This document shows, one piece after another, positions 22,431-61,156 of a DNA stretch of 64,000 nt. Origin of the DNA: Patescibacteria group bacterium. GTDB taxonomy: Bacteria; Patescibacteriota; Patescibacteriia; UBA9934. Location: positions 20,386-84,385 of the forward strand of contig JBAYHI010000005.1 of NCBI GenBank assembly GCA_041666205.1, written 5' to 3'. Positions within the stretch are counted from its first letter, which is position 1; the number at the start of each line of letters is the position of its first letter. Position numbers and translations under genes: made by a program. The notes beneath the pieces are model-generated. The model did not search any database. It was given only the letters and a program-made list of their open reading frames with translations, and was not told the origin of the DNA.

Positions 22431-23681
22431 CTATTCAAATCGAAGTGCCTCGATTGGATCAAGCCGTGCAGCTCGACGTGCGGGATAGAGGCCAAAAACG
22501 ATTCCAACCGTTGTGGAAACAAGCACTCCAAGCACCATTGCGTCGAGTGGCACTGCCGCGCTCCATCCATCTACGAATTTACCGACAATATATCCAATAA
22601 GCAATGAAAATCCAACGCCCGAGATAATCCCGATAATCCCGCCAAACATGGTGAGAAGCACAGATTCGAGCAAAAATTGCTGCAAAATTTCTTTATAGGT
22701 GGCACCAATTGCTTTGCGAAGTCCAATCTCTTTCGTGCGTTCCGTAACGGATACAAGCATGATATTCATGATGCCGATGCCACCAACCACAAGAGAAATC
22801 GCGGCAATCGAAGCAAGTAAAATCGTGAGCACTCCCCCAACAATGCCTACAATGGCAACCGCATCACTTTGCGAAGAAACCGCAAAATCGTCAAGCGCCG
22901 GGTCAGCGGTTGGATTATCAATATTGTGACTGTCGCGCATCACCCACTGAGCCTCTTCTTTCGTGATATCAATATCGCCTGACGCTTTGGCTGCAATATA
23001 GGTCACATTGTCGAGACCCAAAATGTCTCGTTGCGCGGTGGTGATTGGAACAACAATTTGTTCATCTTGATTTTGAAAAAATCGCGTACCAAGTTCTGGG
23101 AATACTCCAATTACTTTCAGGCTGACTTTTTTGAGTTTAACGGTCTGACCAATGGGGTCTTGGTCTCCGAATAAATCCTCGGCAACGGTTTTTCCAAGCA
23201 CAACCACTTTGGCATACGACTGAATATCTGTTTGGTCCAAAAAGCGACCTGAAGCAATTTCCGCTGGGAATACTTCCAAATAATCCTCATTCACTCCAAC
23301 CACCTGCACAAATTTGCTCGTTTCCTCGCGTGTAATTGGCGTGGACGATTGAATCACACCTGTGACTGCAGAAAAATATCCGGACTTATTGAGAGCATCG
23401 ATGTCGTCGAGCGTTAGCGTTTGCTCAATATACGGGCTTGGAGGCCCAGACATGGGATCGCCCGAACTTGCCTCAACGAATACCAAATCCGATCCGAGGT
23501 TTGCCACTTGATTCAAAATGAGTCCTTCAGACGATCGGCCAATGGAGAGCATCATCATGACCGCGGCAATCCCAATCACGATCCCTAAAATCGTCAAAAT
23601 CGAGCGCGAACGATTGCGCATGAGCGAGGTAACCGAGGTTTTCAGAAGATCGGAAAGAATCATATTATTTATAGTATCCAC
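22431..23681 (-). CDS. ABC transporter permease, MacB/FtsX-like
   Basis: N-terminal TM + large periplasmic MacB_PCD-like domain + C-terminal FtsX 3-TM bundle (…GIMNIMLVSVTERTKEIGLRKAIGA…). Confidence 0.8.
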   Translation of the reverse strand: MDTINNMILSDLLKTSVTSLMRNRSRSILTILGIVIGIAAVMMMLSIGRSSEGLILNQVANLGSDLVFVEASSGDPMSGPPSPYIEQTLTLDDIDALNKSGYFSAVTGVIQSSTPITREETSKFVQVVGVNEDYLEVFPAEIASGRFLDQTDIQSYAKVVVLGKTVAEDLFGDQDPIGQTVKLKKVSLKVIGVFPELGTRFFQNQDEQIVVPITTAQRDILGLDNVTYIAAKASGDIDITKEEAQWVMRDSHNIDNPTADPALDDFAVSSQSDAVAIVGIVGGVLTILLASIAAISLVVGGIGIMNIMLVSVTERTKEIGLRKAIGATYKEILQQFLLESVLLTMFGGIIGIISGVGFSLLIGYIVGKFVDGWSAAVPLDAMVLGVLVSTTVGIVFGLYPARRAARLDPIEALRFE

Positions 23682-24384
23682 CCGTGCGTTTTACATGGTC
23701 ACGGCTGTCGGATTCAATTTTGCCATCACGGATGCGCACAATGCGATCCGCGAATTCCGCGGCTTCAAGTTCGTGAGTAACCATCACAATGGTGGTTCCA
23801 AATTTCTCGTGCAAATCCTGGAAAATCCCAAGAACAGCTTCCCCTGATTTCGTATCGAGGTTTCCAGTTGGCTCATCGGCGAAAATAACCGACGGCTTAT
23901 TCACGAGAGCGCGAGCAATGGCAACGCGTTGTTTTTCTCCGCCAGAAATAGTGTTGGATAAATAATGTGCTCGATGATCGATCCCAACTGAGCGGAGTGC
24001 TTCCATGGCTCGTTCTTCTCGTTCCGCGGGCGGAATCTTCGCATACATCATTGGAAGCATCACGTTCTCAATCACCGTGGATTTTGCGAGCAGGTTGAAT
24101 GCTTGAAACACAAACCCCACCTCGCGTGATCGCTCACCTGCCAATTCATCGTCGGTCATCTTTTGAACGTCTTTCCCATTGAATAGGTAGACTCCGTCTG
24201 TAATGCGATCCAAAAAGCCCAAAATATGCATGAGCGTGGATTTTCCCGATCCAGATGGTCCCATGAGCGCAATGAATTCGCCTTTTTCAACCGAAAGATC
24301 AATCCCGCGAAGGACTGGTGTTTCCACCTCACCAGATTTATACGTTTTGGTGAGATTTTTCAGAGTGAACAAGGGCTCTGCCAT
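23665..24384 (-). CDS. ABC transporter ATP-binding protein (MacB/LolD-type)
   Basis: Walker A GPSGSGKST, signature LSGGEKQRVAIARAL, Walker B VIFADEPTGNLD. Start set at MAEPLFTLKNL. Confidence 0.85.
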   Translation of the reverse strand: MAEPLFTLKNLTKTYKSGEVETPVLRGIDLSVEKGEFIALMGPSGSGKSTLMHILGFLDRITDGVYLFNGKDVQKMTDDELAGERSREVGFVFQAFNLLAKSTVIENVMLPMMYAKIPPAEREERAMEALRSVGIDHRAHYLSNTISGGEKQRVAIARALVNKPSVIFADEPTGNLDTKSGEAVLGIFQDLHEKFGTTIVMVTHELEAAEFADRIVRIRDGKIESDSRDHVKRTGGYYK

Positions 24385-24385
24385 A

Positions 24386-26227
24386 TTATTTTTTCGTGGA
24401 GAGAATAATCGTCTCGCCTTCGGAAAGTCCGGACAAGATCTCAATGAGCCCGCCGTCTGCGCGAAGGCCAGTTGTCACGTCCACTTCTTTATACGAATCC
24501 CCTTCTGGAACACGCACGTATTTTGTTTTATCTGCACGCTCGAGGACGGCGCGTTGAGGGATATTCAGTACCCCGTTGTATTCTTCGGTCACGATTGTGA
24601 CGTCCGCGGAAAGGCCTGAACGCAAATCAAGACTATTCGCATCGTCGCCAAGCACAACGGTTACTTCATAATACACAACGCTCTCGAGATTTTTTTCAGA
24701 ATCTGAAATTTCGCTCACTGTCCCACCCACAACCGTACCACTGCCAAATGCATCAAAGGTAATGGACGCTAAATCGCCAACCGATACTTTTGTAATATCG
24801 GATTCTGAAATATCGACGACGATTTTAAAGCGATCTGTGGCTGATTGCAGTTCAACCGCTTTTGTACCAGCCATGATCTGCTCACCAATATCCCCAGAAA
24901 GATACGTGATTTTTCCGGTGATTGGGGCAATGATTTGCGATTTTTGGAGTCTTGCAAGCGAAGCGTCTACATCGGCTTGAGCACGATCGATATCTGCGTA
25001 GTATGGTTCCAGATCAACAAATCGTGGCTGTGCTTTCACTTGATTATAGGAGGCGGTCGCTGAGGCTAAATCTGCCTCACGAAGCGCTACAATCGCCTTG
25101 GCAGACGCCACACGCGTTTCTGCATCAAGTTGCGCGTTGAGATAGGCTTGTTCTGCTAAAAGCACGGCATATTCTGACGTATGTTCATTTGTTTGCGCTG
25201 CAAAATCGGCATTCACATACGCTTGTTTCTGACCAGCATATGCATTTGACGATGCCTCGAACGAATTACGAGCTGCATCGATGGACGCTTTAAGATTTGC
25301 AAGATCGGTTAAAGAAAAACCTGCGGCTTCGAGCGTTGTCGCGTCCAGTGCTTGTCGGGTATACAAAAGCGTCAATTCCACTTCTTGGAGCAAGGATTCA
25401 AACGCGGGTTCAAGCGCCTCGATGGTCTCGATGGAATCCGTTGCACTGAGTGCGTAGATTGAATCCTCGATCGCGTCGCGTCCGTCACGCGCCTCCACGA
25501 AGGACTCATTTGCGTTCTGAAGGGCCTGATCATCCATATTGGACAGAATCCCCTCAAACGCATCGTTTACGGTGGTGCTTTCAATACCAAGAATTGCGTC
25601 CGCTGAAGTCAATGCGGACCGAATCGCAGTCATGGCTGTTTTCATGGAGGTCACCAAGTTTTCGCGTGCGTTTACAAGTGCTGTATCTGTGGTAGACCCA
25701 GAATCCAGAGCATTCTGTCGTGCTTGATTGAGACGAATCGATGCATCGTCAAGCGCCGCGGACGTTGTAAGAATCGTGTTTGAATAATCCACCTTTGCCG
25801 ATGTAAGCGCCGCATTTGAGGAATTCACTTGCGCGAGCGATACGGCAAGCGCTTCGTTTGAGACTCCCGCAAGTTTTAGATTGAGCTGTGCGGTTGCAGC
25901 TCGCATGGCTTGCTCTGCACGGCGATAATCTGCTTCCAAATCCGGTGCTTTTAGCGCGGCAAGCAGTGTTCCTTGCGCCACAATATCGCCTTCTTCAACG
26001 TAGAACGTCTTCAATAGACCGCTTGATTCAAAAGAGAGGCTGAGGTTTTCCACGGATTGCAAACTTCCAGATGCCTCAACGGTTTGGACCAAATAACCGC
26101 GTTCAACGCGATCGGTTGTATAGGCCTCTGTTTTGCCGCCACTAAAGGCGAAAATTGACCCAATGATGAGCAGAATTCCGGCCACAGAGCCGATGAGAAT
26201 CCACTGCTTTTTTGTTGGCTTTTTCAT
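24386..26227 (-). CDS. HlyD/MacA-family periplasmic adaptor with very long coiled-coil
   Basis: N-terminal TM anchor, biotinyl/lipoyl-like hairpin (…FYVEEGDIVAQGTLLAALK…), ~350-aa Ala/Gln-rich coiled coil, C-terminal beta-barrel; same operon as ABC ATPase and permease. Confidence 0.75.
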   Translation of the reverse strand: MKKPTKKQWILIGSVAGILLIIGSIFAFSGGKTEAYTTDRVERGYLVQTVEASGSLQSVENLSLSFESSGLLKTFYVEEGDIVAQGTLLAALKAPDLEADYRRAEQAMRAATAQLNLKLAGVSNEALAVSLAQVNSSNAALTSAKVDYSNTILTTSAALDDASIRLNQARQNALDSGSTTDTALVNARENLVTSMKTAMTAIRSALTSADAILGIESTTVNDAFEGILSNMDDQALQNANESFVEARDGRDAIEDSIYALSATDSIETIEALEPAFESLLQEVELTLLYTRQALDATTLEAAGFSLTDLANLKASIDAARNSFEASSNAYAGQKQAYVNADFAAQTNEHTSEYAVLLAEQAYLNAQLDAETRVASAKAIVALREADLASATASYNQVKAQPRFVDLEPYYADIDRAQADVDASLARLQKSQIIAPITGKITYLSGDIGEQIMAGTKAVELQSATDRFKIVVDISESDITKVSVGDLASITFDAFGSGTVVGGTVSEISDSEKNLESVVYYEVTVVLGDDANSLDLRSGLSADVTIVTEEYNGVLNIPQRAVLERADKTKYVRVPEGDSYKEVDVTTGLRADGGLIEILSGLSEGETIILSTKK

Positions 26228-28121: not shown

Positions 28122-28672
28122 ACGTCTTTTTGGAAGGCCGCTTCGAGCATTTCATTAATTTTTGCGTGTTTATGCAAAGATTCGTAATCTGGGAGCTCCG
28201 CAACAGAATGAATTCCCAAATGACGAAGCATCTCCGTTGACACCGTAAAATACGACTCAATTTTTCCTTCTTCCTCACGTTCGACAATGAGACCGCGCAT
28301 GAGCAAATTACGAATGATGAGTGAGCAATTCACGCCACGAATGTATTCGACTTCGTTTTTAGTAACCGGACCGCGATACGCAATAATCGTGAGCGTTTCG
28401 AGTTGTGGGCGCGTGAGTTCTGAAGCGGTTTCCTCTTTTGTCATCGATGAGATGACTTCTGCAAACGCAGGATTGGTTCCCAGTTCAACCGCACCTTCCC
28501 CAACAATCACGTGAATTCCGCTTGTTGGAACATTGCGATAATGCACAAGCTCCTCAATTGCCTCACGTGCCTCGAGTTCTTTAATCCCAAGAATACCGGC
28601 GAGTTTATGAAAAGAAACCGGCCGAGCCGATAAAAGAAGAAGCGCTTCGATTTTTGCCGCAATCTCGCTCAT
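28118..28672 (-). CDS. scpB: segregation and condensation protein B
   Basis: Tandem winged-helix ScpB pattern MSEIAAKIEALLLLSARPVSFHKLAGILG...LETLTIIAYRGPVTKNEVEYIRG. Confidence 0.85.
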   Translation of the reverse strand: MSEIAAKIEALLLLSARPVSFHKLAGILGIKELEAREAIEELVHYRNVPTSGIHVIVGEGAVELGTNPAFAEVISSMTKEETASELTRPQLETLTIIAYRGPVTKNEVEYIRGVNCSLIIRNLLMRGLIVEREEEGKIESYFTVSTEMLRHLGIHSVAELPDYESLHKHAKINEMLEAAFQKDV

Positions 28673-29370
28673 AGACGAACAATTTCGATGTCATTATCGC
28701 CTGTTTGACTTGCTTTGACAATACGCCGACGCATGAGTTCGAGTAGGGCCATGAAGCTCACCACCACCTCTGCTCTACTTTTCGCGCCGGCCATGACGTC
28801 GCGAAATCCCATTTTTGCACGCGAAGCGATTGCGCTCGTCATTTCACGCAAGCGTTCTTCAACACTTTTCACTCGCTCCATGGAGACTTCCCGAAGCGCA
28901 AAAAATGGTTGAAGACGTTTTAGAATCCAGGTGAACGCTTCGTGGATACTATTTGTGTTCACGTTCTGCGACGCGGAAAATTGAACTTCTTGCGTTGACT
29001 TCACAATGCGTGAGAATGGCTGACGGAACGAATGCAAGGGGCCAGAGTAAACCGCAGCCAACCGATCCGCAGCATCTGCGAATAACCGATAAACTCGGAG
29101 TTGTTCTTCGAGTGAAACCGCGTCTTCTTCTGCCTCGGCTTCAAGATACGGCAAAAGCGCTCGACTCTTAAGATAAATTAGGCGCGAGGCGATCAAAAGA
29201 AAGTCAGCAAGCTCGTCGGACGGGATTTCGTGGCTATTTAAATAGTCCAAATAGGCCTCTGTAATGCTTGCAAGCGCCACTTCCGTAATCTCTAGCTTTT
29301 TCTGCTCCAAGAGCTCTAAAAGAAGGCCCAGAGGCCCGGAGAATGCGCTTTGCTCAACGGTAAACGCCAT
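28669..29370 (-). CDS. scpA: segregation and condensation protein A
   Basis: GPLGLLLELLEQKKLEITEVALASITEAYLDYL; kleisin family; overlaps scpB by 4 nt. Confidence 0.8.
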   Translation of the reverse strand: MAFTVEQSAFSGPLGLLLELLEQKKLEITEVALASITEAYLDYLNSHEIPSDELADFLLIASRLIYLKSRALLPYLEAEAEEDAVSLEEQLRVYRLFADAADRLAAVYSGPLHSFRQPFSRIVKSTQEVQFSASQNVNTNSIHEAFTWILKRLQPFFALREVSMERVKSVEERLREMTSAIASRAKMGFRDVMAGAKSRAEVVVSFMALLELMRRRIVKASQTGDNDIEIVRL

Positions 29371-29405
29371 ACCGCCCTATTTTAGCACAATTGCAGGATT
29401 TACCA

Positions 29406-29434
29406 TTGACGAAAAGGCATTTTTGGGGTAAATT
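29406..29434 (+). promoter_or_regulatory. promoter TTGACG-N17-TAAATT for small membrane protein gene 1
   Basis: -35 29406-29411, -10 29429-29434; GGAGGA RBS at 29447-29452. Confidence 0.45.
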
Positions 29435-29455
29435 ATCGCGTCCCTTGGAGGAAGC

Positions 29456-29698
29456 TTGAGACGGAATCGCGTACACTTCACCGAATGGATCCGGGAGATT
29501 CTTTTCATCCCGGCCGTAATCCTCATCGTCCTCATTCCAGGAGTCGGACTCATGATCTTCACAGCACTCGTCGACGCGCTCGTTCAGGTGGCGCCCATCC
29601 TCTGGTGGGTCAGCGTCGCAACGCTCGCGGTGCTCATCGAGACACGCCTCATGCGCCAGAGGCGGGCCGAGCTCATCCGCCAGGTCGCGGAGAAGTAA
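29456..29698 (+). CDS. small membrane protein 1 (80 aa, 2 TM), GC-rich, TTG start
   Basis: MRRNRVHFTEWIREILFIPAVILIVLIPGVGLMIFTALVDALVQVAPILWWVSVATLAVLIETRLMRQRRAELIRQVAEK; own promoter, RBS and terminator. Confidence 0.45.
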   Translation: MRRNRVHFTEWIREILFIPAVILIVLIPGVGLMIFTALVDALVQVAPILWWVSVATLAVLIETRLMRQRRAELIRQVAEK

Positions 29699-29723
29699 CC
29701 CCCGCCACCCGCGCCCCTCCGAT

Positions 29724-29756
29724 CCCCCGGCCACGCCGTGGGGGTCGCTTCTTTTT
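29724..29756 (+). terminator. intrinsic terminator module T1: cccccggccacgccgtggggg hairpin + tcgcttcttttta
   Basis: GC stem then T-run; near-identical copy at 30057-30090. Confidence 0.5.
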
Positions 29757-29762
29757 ATACGG

Positions 29763-29791
29763 TTGACAAGACGCCTGCGGAACCGCAAAAT
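29763..29791 (+). promoter_or_regulatory. promoter TTGACA-N17-CAAAAT for small protein gene 2 (duplicated module)
   Basis: -35 29763-29768; GGAGG at 29813-29817, 5 nt before ATG 29823; the same TTGACAAGACG.C.GC.GAACCGCAAAAT box recurs at 30097-30125. Confidence 0.45.
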
Positions 29792-29822
29792 ATCAGCGCC
29801 TACAATGCTCGCGGAGGCCACC

Positions 29823-30035
29823 ATGGAATATTCCTGCCCGGCAGTTCCCGATTGTTTCGAAGACGACGAAGACACGGACGAAATTGAACGTGAAGAACAG
29901 CAGGAACACGAGCAGATTCTGCGACTCATGAGGGGCATCGTCCTCGTGCTGTTCGGTGTCTCTGGCGTCATCTTCCTCTTCTCGTTCCTCCTCATCGTTT
30001 TTGGCATCTCCCTCATCGTCATGGCGATCACGTGA
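29823..30035 (+). CDS. small protein 2 (70 aa): highly acidic N-terminus + single C-terminal TM
   Basis: MEYSCPAVPDCFEDDEDTDEIEREEQQEHEQILRLMRGIVLVLFGVSGVIFLFSFLLIVFGISLIVMAIT; start chosen by RBS rather than the TTG inside the -35 box. Confidence 0.45.
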   Translation: MEYSCPAVPDCFEDDEDTDEIEREEQQEHEQILRLMRGIVLVLFGVSGVIFLFSFLLIVFGISLIVMAIT

Positions 30036-30056
30036 TGACGAGCTGTCACCTCTCGA

Positions 30057-30090
30057 TCCCCCCGGCCACGCCGTGGGGGTCGCTTCATAT
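30057..30090 (+). terminator. terminator module T2 (ccccccggccacgccgtggggg + tcgcttcatatttgg), paralogue of T1
   Basis: Same hairpin as 29724-29745 with one extra C; weaker T-run. Confidence 0.4.
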
Positions 30091-30096
30091 TTGGCG

Positions 30097-30125
30097 ATTG
30101 ACAAGACGTCCGCAGAACCGCAAAA
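30097..30125 (+). promoter_or_regulatory. promoter TTGACA-N17-CAAAAT for small protein gene 3
   Basis: -35 30097-30102; GGAGG at 30136-30140, 5 nt before ATG 30146. Confidence 0.45.
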
Positions 30126-30145
30126 TGAGCGAACTGGAGGTTTCC

Positions 30146-30403
30146 ATGTCCATCAGCAAAGTGTGGTTGCGGCTCGTCCGCCCCGTTCTCTGCATCCCTG
30201 CCGGCATCATCGCACTGTTCCTCTTCGGAGTGATGTTCACCCGTACGGTCGATGCCTTCACCGCGGCCGAGTCTTTCCTCGACCACTACTCGGTCTTGTT
30301 CGAATTCTGCGCCCCGACGCTCTTGTTCTTCGTCGCAGGAAGCACAGCTCTTTTCCTTGCATTCGAAAACAAACCAGACGCGTCGAAGAACGCGCCCTCG
30401 TGA
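30146..30403 (+). CDS. small membrane protein 3 (85 aa, 2 TM)
   Basis: MSISKVWLRLVRPVLCIPAGIIALFLFGVMFTRTVDAFTAAESFLDHYSVLFEFCAPTLLFFVAGSTALFLAFENKPDASKNAPS. Confidence 0.45.
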   Translation: MSISKVWLRLVRPVLCIPAGIIALFLFGVMFTRTVDAFTAAESFLDHYSVLFEFCAPTLLFFVAGSTALFLAFENKPDASKNAPS

Positions 30404-30440
30404 CCCCGCTCCGCGCTCGCGTGGCGGGGTCAACGCATAT

Positions 30441-30499
30441 AAAAATCCGCCCTCTGAAGCTCACATTGAGCGCAGGAGGGCGGATTTTATTTTATTTTT
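30441..30499. terminator. bidirectional intrinsic terminator between small-protein cassette (+) and aspS (-)
   Basis: aaaaat-ccgccctc...gagggcgg-attttattttattttt; the T-run overlaps the last aspS codons. Confidence 0.55.
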
Positions 30500-31895
30500 C
30501 CAATTTGATATGTGCCTCTCGGAGTGCCGTATCTGGCAGTGGACTTGGAGCACCCATCATGTGGTCGCGCGCAACGCCATCTTTTGCAAATGGAATCACC
30601 TCGCGGATATTTGGCTCGTTTTGCAAGAGCGCAATCAAACGATCCATGCCGAGCGCCAATCCCCCGTGTGGAGGCGCACCAAATTCAAATGCACGAAGCA
30701 TGTGGCCAAATTGTTGTTCAATCATCTCCGGGCTCGTTTCCATAATCTCGAGGACTGCTCGAAGCGCTTCTGGCTTATGGTTTCGAATGCTTCCACCACC
30801 GATTTCAAATCCATTAAGAACAATATCGTATTGTGCAGCCTGGATTGACCCGACATCTTCTTTCTTCATGAGCTTATCCATATCAGCTGGCTTTGGAGCC
30901 GAGAATGGATTATGTGTGAAGGTCCAACGGCTCCCATCTTTTTCAAACATCGGGAAATCCACAACCCAAAGGAACGCTAATTCGTTTGGATCTTCTTTAT
31001 TGACGCGCAAATCTGGTTTGTCAGAGCCATATTTTTCCATCACCTCTTTATACGTGAGGCGTGGGAATGGCTTATTCTGAATATGCTTTTCCGGGTAGAG
31101 TTTTTCAACAATCTCGATAAGCAACGCCTCAACCGTTGAAATGACATCTTCTTCCTCAACAAAACTCATTTCCAAATCGAGTTGGGTAAATTCCGGCTGA
31201 CGGTCGCCACGCTGATCTTCATCGCGGAAGCAACGCGCAACTTGGAAGTAACGCTCAATCCCCGCAACCATAAGAAGTTGCTTGAATTGCTGTGGCGCTT
31301 GTGGAAGCACGTAAAATTGCCCTTCATGCAAACGCGATGGAATAATAAATTCGCGCGCACCTTCTGGAGTGCCCTTGGTAAGAATTGGAGTTTCTACTTC
31401 ACAAAAACTCTTTGATAAAAGATGTGTTCGCATGCTTTGCAAAACCGCATTGCGCATCCACACGTTTTTTGCCATGCGCTCGCTTCGCAAGTCGAGGTAA
31501 CGATATTTCAATCGCGTTTCCTCGTTGATAGGCATGGTGTCTTTATCGAGTTCAAATGGCGGTGTTTTTGCTTCGTTGTGAACCAAAATTTTCTTGGCCA
31601 AAAGTTCAACCGTGCCTGTGGCAAGCTTCTCATTGATTTGCTTGGCACTTCGGGCCTGTACAACCCCTTCAATTTCCACCACCCATTCCGGACGAATGGA
31701 TTGCGCAATTGCCGTCATTTCCTCGCCCAATTCGGCTGGAACACAAACGATTTGAAGCAAGGCGTCCTTATCGCGAAGATCAAAAAAGATGACTTTTCCC
31801 ATATCGCGACGGGCATGAATCCAGCCAGCCACGGTGACGGTTTCGCCAACCAAAGGGACAGTTTCGGTCGTAAAAATTCGTTTCATAATTGTCAT
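30492..31895 (-). CDS. aspS: aspartate--tRNA ligase (short, 467 aa; possibly non-discriminating type)
   Basis: N-terminal OB anticodon-binding domain (GETVTVAGWIHARRDMGKVIFFDLRD), class II motifs (FRDEDQRGDRQPEFTQLDLE, GGGSIR). Confidence 0.9.
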   Translation of the reverse strand: MTIMKRIFTTETVPLVGETVTVAGWIHARRDMGKVIFFDLRDKDALLQIVCVPAELGEEMTAIAQSIRPEWVVEIEGVVQARSAKQINEKLATGTVELLAKKILVHNEAKTPPFELDKDTMPINEETRLKYRYLDLRSERMAKNVWMRNAVLQSMRTHLLSKSFCEVETPILTKGTPEGAREFIIPSRLHEGQFYVLPQAPQQFKQLLMVAGIERYFQVARCFRDEDQRGDRQPEFTQLDLEMSFVEEEDVISTVEALLIEIVEKLYPEKHIQNKPFPRLTYKEVMEKYGSDKPDLRVNKEDPNELAFLWVVDFPMFEKDGSRWTFTHNPFSAPKPADMDKLMKKEDVGSIQAAQYDIVLNGFEIGGGSIRNHKPEALRAVLEIMETSPEMIEQQFGHMLRAFEFGAPPHGGLALGMDRLIALLQNEPNIREVIPFAKDGVARDHMMGAPSPLPDTALREAHIKLEK

Positions 31896-53536: not shown

Positions 53537-53556
53537 ACAGGGCTTTCAGCCCCTGT
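53537..53556. repeat. REP-like hairpin acagggctttcagcccctgt
   Basis: Same GGGGC...GCCCC design as the 5649/5699/5983 hairpins. Confidence 0.45.
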
Positions 53557-53561
53557 GTTGT

Positions 53562-53975
53562 CCTCCACTTTTCTTTGCTGGCCCAAAGAAAAGTGGAGAG
53601 AAAAGAAATGGCCTGCTTACGGCCCATCCCAGCCTTCGCGCTTGGCTGGCCCGGAAAAACGTATGAAGAACCAAACCACCCAGGGCAGGAACGTTTTTCC
53701 GGTCGGGCCTTGTTCGATAGCCTGTTTTTATTTGAATCGCCGGCTCGAGCATTGTCAAAGAGGAATCCGGCGTTCGGACAGGAATTGCACGGCCACCTCC
53801 GGCACATCCAAAGTTGTACGGGCATGGCGCGCCATGCCCGTACGCGGGATCCATTGCCGGAGACTGGCCGTGCCCTGGCCGACGACGGATAAGACAACAT
53901 GCCTCTTTGACAAGCGCAGACCCGGCAGCCAGTTTCTTTCCCTCCACTTTCTTTGCTGGTCCAAAGAAAGTGGAG
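53562..53975. repeat. composite repeat element copy 2 (hairpin - 87-bp core 53622-53708 - aaagaggaatccggc - ~170-bp insert incl. 28-bp perfect palindrome 53816-53843 - hairpin ctccactttctttgctggtccaaagaaagtggag)
   Basis: 87/87 identity of core with 5792-5878; terminal hairpins conserved; insert unique to this copy. Confidence 0.65.
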
Positions 53976-53985
53976 ATAACAGGAA

Positions 53986-54843
53986 TCAAAACTCAAAACT
54001 CGCTACCTCGATTTTCTTCCCGTCTGACAAAAGCCGAATATCTCCCAACTGATCGGTACGCAAAATCTCTGCGCCAACCGACTGCAGACGGTCCACAATC
54101 GTCGGGCTTGGATGCCCGTAGTCATTCTCCCCAACCGAAATAACTGCGTACTCGGGTTTCACCATTTCCAAAAACGTGCTCGACGATGAACTAAGACTCC
54201 CATGATGCCCGACTTTGAGCACATCAACGTCAACGAGACCTGATGTCATTTGCGCTTCTTCTTCAATCCCCGCGTCGCCTGTAAAAAGAACCTCGACATC
54301 TCCGTCTTTCAGCAACAGCACAAGCGAACTGTCATTTTCGTCGTCCACATTTTCTACAAAATCCAACAATGGCCACAAAATACAAAGCGATCGATTCTCA
54401 CCCAACTCCAAACAATCTGGTGCGGACGCAATTTCATCATTCGTTTTCCCCATAAACTCTTTTCCAAGTTCCGTGCTGTACGTCGCATTCGGTCGCCAAA
54501 CTTCCCCAAACGAATACCGATCTGCCACCGCATTTAGTCCAACCAAATGATCGGCATGATCGTGTGAGGAAATCATATACTCAATATTGCGATCCCAAAA
54601 CGGCATCACAGCGGAAAGTTTCTCAATCACCTGCTGACTGGGCCCGCCGTCGATCAGAATTTGTGTAGATCCACTTTGAATGAGCGCAGAGTCTCCCTGC
54701 CCCACATCGAAAAACCACACGGCTAATTTTTCATCGCTAAAAATCGTCGGCGACGCAATCGATTGCACCGCCACGGTCACCAAACAAAACGCAACAAGAC
54801 CTACAAATGAGAAAAAAGCTTTTTTCGTTTTACGATAAGCCAT
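53986..54843 (-). CDS. ComEC/Rec2-type metallo-beta-lactamase domain protein (C-terminal module of ComEC encoded separately)
   Basis: MBL motifs ISSHDHADH, GDAG, HHGS; start set at MAYRKTKKAFF (TM anchor); overlaps upstream ComEC membrane ORF by 43 nt in another frame. Confidence 0.65.
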   Translation of the reverse strand: MAYRKTKKAFFSFVGLVAFCLVTVAVQSIASPTIFSDEKLAVWFFDVGQGDSALIQSGSTQILIDGGPSQQVIEKLSAVMPFWDRNIEYMISSHDHADHLVGLNAVADRYSFGEVWRPNATYSTELGKEFMGKTNDEIASAPDCLELGENRSLCILWPLLDFVENVDDENDSSLVLLLKDGDVEVLFTGDAGIEEEAQMTSGLVDVDVLKVGHHGSLSSSSSTFLEMVKPEYAVISVGENDYGHPSPTIVDRLQSVGAEILRTDQLGDIRLLSDGKKIEVASFEF

Positions 54844-60084: not shown

Positions 60085-60160
60085 AACGCACGTATCGTAG
60101 CGAAAAAATCGATTATTCGCAATTTCTCCTGAATGCAAGAACTCCCCGAACCGACCGCAG

Positions 60161-61012
60161 TCAGTTCAGGGAGTTGAGATGAGACGCCAAGTGCTTACGC
60201 CAGCCCACGAGGTCGATGGCGACCACCGACACGTCATCGTAGGGACGCTCTCGGAGGATACGGGTCCAGAACTCGCTCGCGCGTTCCTGGAATGACTTGT
60301 GTTGACCTGCGAGGAGTCGCAGTTCCGCGCCGAGTGACGGCCCGAGTGCGTACCTCACGCCATCGGACATGAGGATCAGCACCGTCGCTTCCTCTGGCCA
60401 GGCGGTCTGCCACACGGTCTCGGGATCAGCTTGCAAAGCATCCCCGTAGACGAAGTCCCCGAATGCCCGACTGAGTTGAATCGGGGGCAGCCTCATCGTC
60501 CAGGGCGGATGGAAGTAGTGCGTCTTCGGGCGATCAGGATCTGCGCGAACTTGCCAGCCCGACGACTGGAGCCTCGCACGCTCACCTGCATTGTTGGTTC
60601 CGTGCGCCGGCGTCATGGGCTGTGGTTCGCTCATGTCTGGACGCAGCAGATACGCTTCCGTATCCCCAACCGTCGCAACGCAGACAAACTCTCCCGTGAG
60701 AATCGTCCACGCCGCCGTTGTGCCCCCATAGCAGCGCGAGATCTTCAGGAACCCGCAAAGTTCCTGATCGATCCGCTGTGCAATCGCTCGCATTTTCTCA
60801 GGATCGGGGTCCTCCAGGACTTCCGGGAGAAGTCCGTGGCACAATCGCGCCGCGGTTTCGTTCGCGACAAACTCTCCCTTGTCACCGTGCCCGTCGAGGA
60901 CTTCACCGAAGATGTATTCCTCGGTTGCCTCAACGCGAGTGACGTCTTCCGAGACACAACATCCCGGACGTCCACCCTTACGCTCACCTTGAAAAAACAA
61001 TTCGCCGTTCAT
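60161..61012 (-). CDS. PP2C-family Ser/Thr protein phosphatase, GC-rich (~60%)
   Basis: PP2C motifs VLDGHGDKGEFVA, GGTTAA, GDTEAY, SRAFGD, ILMSDGV; strong RBS GAGGAGG; composition clearly above flanks. Confidence 0.75.
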   Translation of the reverse strand: MNGELFFQGERKGGRPGCCVSEDVTRVEATEEYIFGEVLDGHGDKGEFVANETAARLCHGLLPEVLEDPDPEKMRAIAQRIDQELCGFLKISRCYGGTTAAWTILTGEFVCVATVGDTEAYLLRPDMSEPQPMTPAHGTNNAGERARLQSSGWQVRADPDRPKTHYFHPPWTMRLPPIQLSRAFGDFVYGDALQADPETVWQTAWPEEATVLILMSDGVRYALGPSLGAELRLLAGQHKSFQERASEFWTRILRERPYDDVSVVAIDLVGWRKHLASHLNSLN

Positions 61013-61078
61013 GATTCCTCCTCGATTTCGTGAACCGCGCAGGATAACAAAAAATCACCTCTTCGTCAATGCGCTGTC

Positions 61079-61156
61079 CGTCATCCTGACCCCGCTGAGC
61101 GGGGGAAAGATCCCAAGAACCCATCGAGAGATTCTTCGCTAACGCTCAGAATGACG
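61079..61156. promoter_or_regulatory. 78-bp element with 11-bp terminal inverted repeats (cgtcatcctga ... tcagaatgacg) enclosing hairpin ccccgctgagcgggg, upstream of the PP2C gene
   Basis: Seen directly in sequence; one mismatch between arms. Confidence 0.3.

Follow-up and report, generated by a model that had tools for sequence, protein, structure and literature searches.

A GC-rich islet between scpA and aspS of a Patescibacteria genome, probably laterally acquired, with three predicted stand-alone units for orphan small membrane proteins

What is encoded by a kilobase of GC-rich DNA that lies between scpA and aspS in a Patescibacteria genome, and where did this DNA come from? The locus is part of a 64-kb stretch of contig JBAYHI010000005.1 (the window, which was analyzed over its whole length) in a metagenome-assembled genome of the Patescibacteria, or candidate phyla radiation (CPR). 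A previous examination of the letters alone (hereafter, the sequence-only reading) had described a jump to about 60% GC, compared to about 45% in the flanks, and had proposed three small membrane-protein genes at this position. Sliding-window analysis confirmed the jump, as the GC content of positions 29435-30440 was 0.589 versus 0.477 for the whole window. Relative to all 1-kb windows (mean 0.478, standard deviation (sd) 0.032, maximum 0.588), the islet was at +3.3 sd, and equally high GC was found in one other stretch only, at approximately 59.8-60.8 kb. The islet extends roughly from 29436 to 30436 (~1.0 kb). Pfam searches identified the neighboring genes as scpA and a class II aspartyl-tRNA synthetase (AspRS) gene, aspS, in agreement with the earlier placement. 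The aspS terminator lies on one side of the islet and the scpAB promoter on the other, and the islet genes are on the plus strand, opposite to scpA and aspS (both minus). We interpret the islet as a laterally acquired segment of about 1.0 kb in which three small orphan membrane proteins are each encoded by a moron-like unit that is transcribed on its own, a reading to which we assign a probability of about 0.6.

The GC-rich stretch is not an assembly chimera, as both of its junctions recur in three independent assemblies. These were the 288-kb ENA contig k141_1431597 of ERZ27249449, a JGI contig (sample 3300037810) and a Logan contig, in all of which the locus was 100% identical. Altogether, four assemblies hold the locus or part of it, again with 100% identity throughout. 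The JGI sample was derived from a groundwater well at a landfill in southern Ontario, and the other samples are possibly from the same site.

Codon-position composition indicated that the coding frames are the three plus-strand open reading frames (ORFs), referred to here as P1, P2 and P3 (Table 1). All three were found with the lengths given in the sequence-only reading (80, 70 and 85 aa), with two of the starts one base off the positions it implied. In each ORF the GC content was highest at the third codon position (GC3), intermediate at the first (GC1) and lowest at the second (GC2), which is the pattern of genes from GC-rich genomes. The proportion of T at codon position 2 was 0.41-0.47 in the three ORFs, as in genes for hydrophobic proteins. 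In addition, a phase-resolved GC profile tracked the three frames and switched exactly at P2, whose frame differs from that of P1 and P3.

The longest ORF of the region is, however, on the minus strand (359 aa), and the gene callers applied to the ENA and Logan contigs have 155-156-aa pieces of it in place of P1. These observations would favor a reading in which the minus-strand ORF is the real gene and the small plus-strand ORFs are its shadows, but we consider this highly improbable. The GC1, GC2 and GC3 values of the 359-aa ORF were flat (0.63/0.51/0.60), its product is a low-complexity sequence rich in R, E, D and S, and it crosses both of the terminator and promoter modules described below. 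It had no match in Pfam, PHROG or NCBIfam, and an exhaustive HMMER search of 1.84 billion representatives retrieved only a 40-aa fragment of itself. Its frame is the exact codon-antisense of P1 and P3, and such a frame stays open if the codons TTA, CTA and TCA are avoided. The sequence-only reading had called this ORF spurious while allowing that database homologues would make it the real gene, and our searches for such homologues returned none.

Each of the three ORFs was found to have its own expression signals. Three sigma70-like sites were identified on the plus strand, compared to 0.5 expected from dinucleotide shuffles, and a GGAGG was present 4-5 nt before each start, so that the promoter, GGAGG and start codon layout proposed earlier was recovered for all three genes. 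The predicted distance from the end of the -10 hexamer to the ORF start was 22-32 nt for the three sites. The 5' leaders were short and unstructured, with a perfect Shine-Dalgarno (SD) motif. The P1 promoter sits in AT-rich, host-like sequence (44.7% GC at 29371-29455), and those of P2 and P3 are each part of a module in which a hairpin precedes the promoter. The near-identity of these two modules, which had been noted as a repeat of about 70 bp, was evident in both an ungapped alignment (29724-29791 and 30059-30126, 68 nt, 87% identity) and one in which two gaps were allowed (29716-29791 and 30049-30126, 78 nt, 86% identity). Neither half of the module was found elsewhere in the window. In copy 1 the hairpin has a 12-bp stem with one bulge and is followed by a good U-tract (CUUCUUUUUAUA), whereas in copy 2 the minimum free energy stem is shorter (9 bp) and the U-tract weak. 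The conserved spacer of the module, GACGyCyGCrGAACCGC, could be an operator, or it could be a mere sign of recent copying.

A stable hairpin was found 3' of every ORF, with a clear U-tract after P1 and P3 and a weak one after P2. Two hairpins follow P3, and a half-copy of the 5' arm of the first of them is present at 29700-29714, after the P1 stop. The 103-nt 3' region with both hairpins folded far better than shuffled sequences on the plus (z -9.1) and minus (z -7.4) strands, and the distal hairpin can therefore serve as a terminator for P3 as well as for the convergent aspS, as had been suggested. Thus the insulated promoter and terminator units of the sequence-only reading are present as sequence features. 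On the minus strand, a probable native scpAB promoter lies back to back with that of P1, and no other promoter-like site was detected on this strand in 29371-30500, even at relaxed thresholds, by scans that were consensus-based and which an unusual promoter might escape. The scpAB site has an extended -10 (TGcTAAAAT) that ends only 8 nt before the scpA ATG at 29370, which suggests leaderless or near-leaderless initiation of scpA.

Table 1. Positions of the islet genes, their predicted expression signals and other features of the window.
Feature	Position	Strand	Evidence or remark
ScpA	28669-29370	-	Pfam 1.2e-25
359-aa shadow ORF, codon-antisense of P1 and P3, not regarded as a gene	29354-30433	-	Flat GC1/GC2/GC3, no homologues
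Probable native scpAB promoter, ATGGTA-16-TAAAAT, TG just 5' of -10	29379-29406	-	Relaxed promoter scan
Promoter-like site of P1, TTGACG-17-TAAATT	29406-29434	+	Promoter scan
GGAGG of P1	29447-29451	+	4 nt before TTG start
P1, 80 aa, TTG start	29456-29698	+	GC1/GC2/GC3 0.64/0.37/0.79
Terminator and promoter module, copy 1	29716-29791	+	Hairpin 29720-29747, T-run, promoter 29763-29791
Promoter-like site in module copy 1, TTGACA-17-CAAAAT	29763-29791	+	Promoter scan
GGAGG of P2	29813-29817	+	5 nt before ATG
P2, 70 aa	29823-30035	+	GC1/GC2/GC3 0.61/0.28/0.69
Terminator and promoter module, copy 2	30049-30126	+	Hairpin 30058-30079, weaker T-run, promoter 30098-30126
Promoter-like site in module copy 2, TTGACA-17-CAAAAT	30098-30126	+	Promoter scan
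GGAGG of P3	30136-30140	+	5 nt before ATG
P3, 85 aa	30146-30403	+	GC1/GC2/GC3 0.51/0.44/0.77
GC-rich hairpin directly 3' of P3 stop, no U-tract	30399-30435	+	Folding, repeat scan
Predicted bidirectional intrinsic terminator common to P3 (+) and aspS (-)	30442-30488	both	A-run on one side, T-run on the other
Class II AspRS (aspS)	30492-31895	-	Pfam 4e-112
PP2C-type phosphatase, 283 aa, sole gene of second GC-rich islet	60161-61012	-	Pfam PF00481, 5e-16

Public gene calls at the islet (loci L082, L083 and L084) differ from one another. The NCBI and JGI annotations have P1, whereas those of ENA and Logan have the antisense ORF of 155-156 aa, and the called lengths vary between 70 and 76 aa for P2 and between 85 and 92 aa for P3. 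The P1 sequence is exactly that of NCBI MFA6522466.1 (WCT24_02680), annotated as a hypothetical protein of a Patescibacteria group bacterium. NCBI and JGI begin P3 at the ATG at 30125, which produces a 92-aa hypothetical protein (MFA6522468.1, WCT24_02690), and JGI calls P2 as 76 aa from the ATG at 29805. The start at 30125 overlaps the -10 hexamer, and the longer versions of both P2 and P3 have no SD site before them.

The arrangement of small same-strand ORFs with a repeat of about 70 nt between them, itself including an inverted repeat, resembles integron cassettes and arrays of attC sites lacking an integrase (CALINs). In the islet, however, the ORFs are supplied with a promoter by the repeat instead of being promoterless, and there is no integrase among the neighboring genes. 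A regular-expression search of 29371-30500 found neither R'' (RYYYAAC) nor R' (GTTRRRY) on either strand, and we rejected the attC interpretation.

The predicted products are small and very hydrophobic, with grand average of hydropathy values of 0.57-0.84. Hydropathy profiles agreed with the earlier proposal of two transmembrane segments in P1 and P3, and of an acidic N-terminus and one transmembrane segment in P2. P1 has a basic N-terminus and a 54-residue hydrophobic stretch, which D-A-L-V-Q-V-A-P breaks into two helices, and it ends in a charged tail (ETRLMRQRRAELIRQVAEK). P3 likewise has a basic N-terminus, after which come two hydrophobic helices, here separate, and a polar tail that is short. 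In P2, an acidic 36-residue N-terminal tail of net charge -14 (-11 for the whole protein), which includes a CPAVPDC motif, is followed by one 33-residue hydrophobic stretch, and the protein ends in a hydrophobic helix. The AlphaFold2 model of P2, made without an alignment, consisted of a disordered tail and a single continuous helix at residues 28-69 (predicted local distance difference test scores 82-97). For P1, AlphaFold2 returned one unbroken 77-residue helix with a predicted template modeling score of 0.38, which is uninformative on hairpin topology.

P1 and P3 are diverged, old paralogues. Their Smith-Waterman score was 51, compared to 24.5 +/- 4.4 for shuffled sequences and 27.8 +/- 5.1 for local-block shuffles (0 of 3000 reached it in each case), and they have in common the motif R..L.IPA.I...GV..FT..VDA. 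The similarity was strongest in the sense frame (z 6.5) and undetectable at the nucleotide level, with codon position 2 the most conserved and position 3 the least. This paralogy is the sole conservation-type evidence that these frames were translated. P2 and P3, in contrast, are unrelated despite the near-identical modules upstream of them. The cassette-wise amplification put forward in the sequence-only reading was therefore upheld in part, as the module is duplicated and P1 and P3 are old paralogues, but the units are not simple tandem copies, because the modules are 87% identical while the genes that adjoin them are either unrelated or similar only at the protein level. Based on the half-copy at 29700-29714 after the P1 stop, the comparison suggests that the ancestral P1/P3 unit included the hairpin now found after P3, and that the module either arrived by later copying or is kept similar by conversion or constraint.

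The islet deviates from its host in GC3, in codon choice and in translation signals, and on these grounds we conclude that it is foreign DNA acquired laterally, as the sequence-only reading had supposed. The GC3 values of P1, P2 and P3 (0.79, 0.69 and 0.77) lie 3.5-5 sd above the host mean of 0.476 (sd 0.06; n=53 ORFs of >= 150 aa in the window). Their codons mostly end in C (CTC for 21/30 Leu, ATC for 18/22 Ile, GTC for 14/25 Val and TTC for 19/20 Phe), whereas the host prefers ATT, TTT and GTG or GTT. An index resembling the codon adaptation index (CAI-like index), computed against host genes, gave z = -5.4, -2.9 and -2.0 for P1, P2 and P3, respectively. The SD motif is almost absent from host genes in the window, in contrast to a perfect GGAGG in 3/3 of the islet genes. 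The composite pattern TTGAC[AG]-N16-18-nAnnnT...GGAGG-N3-8-start had four occurrences in the 64 kb, both strands included, compared to a mean of 0.19 in shuffles, and the four sites were those of P1, P2, P3 and a PP2C phosphatase gene in the other GC-rich stretch. The horizontal gene transfer (HGT) is probably recent. In Patescibacteria, HGT and genomic islands are of common occurrence (PMC12455944).

The second islet (60140-61080, ~60% GC, GC3 0.68) lies 30 kb off, between leuS and a 111-aa ORF, and is built in the same style as the units of the first. A CCCCGC...GCGGGG hairpin is followed after ~20 nt by TTGACG-N17, then by GAGGAGG and, 4 nt on, by the ATG of the phosphatase gene. The phosphatase had no tblastn match in plasmids. 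With respect to a donor of the first islet, its preference for CTC, ATC, GTC and TTC, with few CTG codons, resembles that of L002, a relative with 61.6% GC. The CAI-like index of the islet genes against L002 codon usage was 0.56-0.59, compared to 0.65 +/- 0.09 for the L002 genes themselves. The L002 genes, however, are also without SD sites, so that we did not find an L002-like donor convincing. L002 (an 839-kb contig) was one of the two nearest relatives by ScpA, together with L003, from which it differs greatly in base composition (37.9% GC in L003); gene order around scpA is not conserved in these relatives, and the label "uncultured Gammaproteobacteria" on both records is probably wrong.

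Searches for relatives of the three proteins had little to return. Against 5.8 billion protein clusters, P1 and P3 matched only their own clusters, and P2 matched nothing, although its own copy is seemingly missing from that database, which made this the weaker search. Nothing above cutoff was obtained for P1-P3 from Pfam, PHROGs, NCBIfam or PADLOC, no tblastn match was found in 50,697 phage genomes, and blastn of the islet DNA had no match in phages or plasmids. IMG/VR was scanned with each half of the module, with P2 and with an alignment of P1 and P3, and no relatives were identified; the module pattern was not found in viral contigs. A single module match in the JGI metagenome contigs (L086) was dismissed as chance, since it falls inside a phage portal gene where it reads MIDKTLTEPQR. 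The conservation of the small ORFs was accordingly confirmed only as the internal similarity of P1 and P3, with none detected outside this genome.

Several of our results weigh against the interpretation of the islet as three acquired, moron-like units. No homologue of P1, P2 or P3 was found in any database searched, the PADLOC defense models produced no match at E <= 1 with either start-codon version of the ORFs, and a prophage context is absent around the islet. All copies are 100% identical and possibly from one site, so that dN/dS, and hence selection, is not measurable. The -10 hexamers of the P2 and P3 promoters are weak (CAAAAT), and the U-tract of the second module, after P2, is poor. 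The nearest ScpA relatives among the GTDB species genomes are 50-54% identical and not syntenic, and they provided no "empty site" that would prove an insertion. In addition, the search for a target-site duplication at the islet ends found only 6-7-mers at chance level.

The orphan status of the ORFs among 5.8 billion protein clusters, the uniformity of the copies, which offer evidence of neither variation nor conservation, and a composition that is un-ameliorated and so speaks for a recent arrival would also be expected of inert foreign DNA whose ORFs are unexpressed or useless and which is being lost. We judge this unlikely. The three ORFs are intact, each with a promoter, a GGAGG and a hairpin, and the similarity of P1 and P3 at the protein level only points to past selection on the protein. 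Moreover, streamlined CPR genomes would seldom be expected to retain 1 kb of junk.

If the units are functional, as we prefer to think, each gene would be transcribed alone from a promoter of the sigma70 type, and P2 and P3 would be expressed together because their promoters are near-identical. Each message would be translated efficiently through a canonical SD site of the kind almost absent from host genes, and the products would insert into the cytoplasmic membrane. Such an organization is reminiscent of the morons of phages, which carry a promoter and a terminator of their own and differ from their neighbors in GC content (PMC3594210). The first moron product to be described was gp15 of HK97, a small superinfection-exclusion protein of the inner membrane that prevents phage DNA from entering (PMC3594210). 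Like morons, the islet units are autonomous, with their own predicted promoter and terminator, and stand between unrelated genes; their GC deviates (0.589 versus 0.477, and GC3 0.69-0.79 versus 0.476), and their predicted products, like that of HK97 gene 15, are small membrane proteins. Unlike morons, the islet lies outside any phage or prophage, as its flanks consist of scpA, scpB, a peptidase S11 gene, aspS, recO, ruvX and a ribosomal-protein/SecY region, and there was no PHROG match. Its proteins have no similarity to any phage protein in the phage genomes or in IMG/VR, and it comprises three tandem units with a common duplicated regulatory module. The defining phage or prophage context is absent and the islet is thus not a true moron, although by analogy it may work like one.

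The functions offered for the peptides in the sequence-only reading (type I toxin, holin, bacteriocin and immunity pair, or phage exclusion) received no support from homology, context or family models. Our favored guess, which we hold tentatively and with more doubt than confidence, gives the peptides an accessory role in the envelope, of the moron or superinfection-exclusion/immunity type, in which the membrane proteins would block entry or action at the membrane. We rank this guess above a membrane-damaging toxin or holin, because a toxin with strong, constitutive-looking signals and neither an antitoxin nor antisense control in view would be poorly tolerated, and because no SD-sequestering leader, no lysis partner and no antisense promoter are visible.

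That the peptides are membrane-damaging toxins, whether type I toxin-like or class II holin-like, which depolarize or permeabilize the membrane, nevertheless has some features to recommend it. Type I toxins such as Hok, Fst, TisB and Ldr are likewise small and hydrophobic, frequently look like orphans and are frequently encoded in intergenic islets, and the best weak match of P1 was to the Hok family (NF007279, E 0.19). That match, however, scored only 11.6 bits against a cutoff of 73, and the islet proteins exceed the typical type I toxin in size, at 70-85 aa with two helices (P1 and P3) or a long acidic tail (P2) compared to <60 aa and one helix. Consensus scans found no promoter-like site on the opposite strand inside the islet from which an antisense antitoxin could be made, and the short leaders leave a strong SD exposed rather than sequestered. 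P1 is also holin-like, in that it is about 80 aa long and ends, after two hydrophobic helices, in a highly charged tail, a pattern that P3 fits weakly. P2, which ends in a hydrophobic helix, and P3 are nonetheless off the class II holin pattern, no holin family in Pfam or PHROGs was matched, and the flanking genes listed above include no lysis cassette, endolysin, spanin or prophage gene. A toxin or holin is accordingly, in our estimation, less likely than inert DNA.

The best weak match of P2 was to YgaP-like_TM (PF11127/DUF2892), with which its short C-terminal hydrophobic region aligned at E 0.0066. The score of 17.0 bits is below the gathering cutoff of 25.3, and the single continuous helix of the AlphaFold2 model differs from the two-helix hairpin of that family.

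We also considered whether P1 and P3 are exported, processed peptides similar to bacteriocins, with the first hydrophobic segment serving as a signal, V-D-A as a signal-peptidase site and P2 as an accessory or immunity protein. In both proteins a basic N-terminus is followed by a hydrophobic stretch, after which comes the invariant V-D-A, and a tripartite exporter (HlyD-like protein, ABC protein and MacB/FtsX protein) is encoded 3-7 kb away at 22431-26227. The hydrophobic stretches (19-24 residues), however, are long for Sec signal peptides and resemble membrane anchors, a double-glycine leader is absent, and the family searches gave no match of the bacteriocin, immunity or processing kind. 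The exporter genes are of host composition and not adjacent to the islet, and the islet genes themselves would be separate transcription units instead of an operon. We regard this explanation as improbable, and more so than a toxin or holin. The exporter genes, on the minus strand, encode a 613-aa HlyD/AprE/YknX-like adaptor, an ABC ATPase and a MacB/FtsX permease, and conceivably could have some relevance to peptide export or protection.

Two related and more speculative ideas, which even taken together we would place below the bacteriocin-like explanation, concern the origin and use of the units. The module could be a portable "expression linker", by which a GC-rich donor lineage packs single ORFs into insulated units that recombine into foreign genomes with other translation signals. 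The build of the PP2C islet, which is of the same style, agrees with this idea. Were it so, it would be a non-integron cassette system that supplies genes to streamlined CPR genomes. Alternatively, the three orphan peptides might be effectors, inserted by a CPR epibiont into membranes where it contacts its host.

Returning to our preferred interpretation, the locus is a well-documented HGT islet and not a new mechanism, and P1 and P3 are already hypothetical proteins at NCBI. Should the units be expressed, this streamlined and SD-poor Patescibacteria genome would have acquired foreign genes that brought a complete set of expression signals with them. The three small membrane proteins, all orphans and two of them paralogues, would then be added to the poorly characterized surface and membrane factors of the CPR, which may mediate phage resistance or interaction with the host cell. 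The composite of promoter, GGAGG and start codon is a cheap marker of foreign genes in this genome. The islet is also a site at which gene callers conflict, two assemblies having the antisense shadow ORF called instead of P1.

Two further features of the window were observed. The AspRS encoded next to the islet has only 467 aa, and its length suggests that it is without the large insertion domain of the typical bacterial AspRS and is presumably of the short archaeal/eukaryote-like type. An ORF-poor region of ~440 nt at 53547-53986, between ndk and a ComEC-like gene, is dense in perfect hairpins. Two direct copies of ~60 nt at its ends each contain a perfect stem of 14-15 bp (53563-53598 and 53942-53975), and there is a 28-nt perfect palindrome at 53816-53843 in addition to long-range inverted repeats. 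The region matched no Rfam family. Its predicted folding energies were -217 and -225 kcal/mol on the two strands (z about -10 relative to shuffles), and we consider it a candidate structured RNA or an element resembling a miniature inverted-repeat transposable element.

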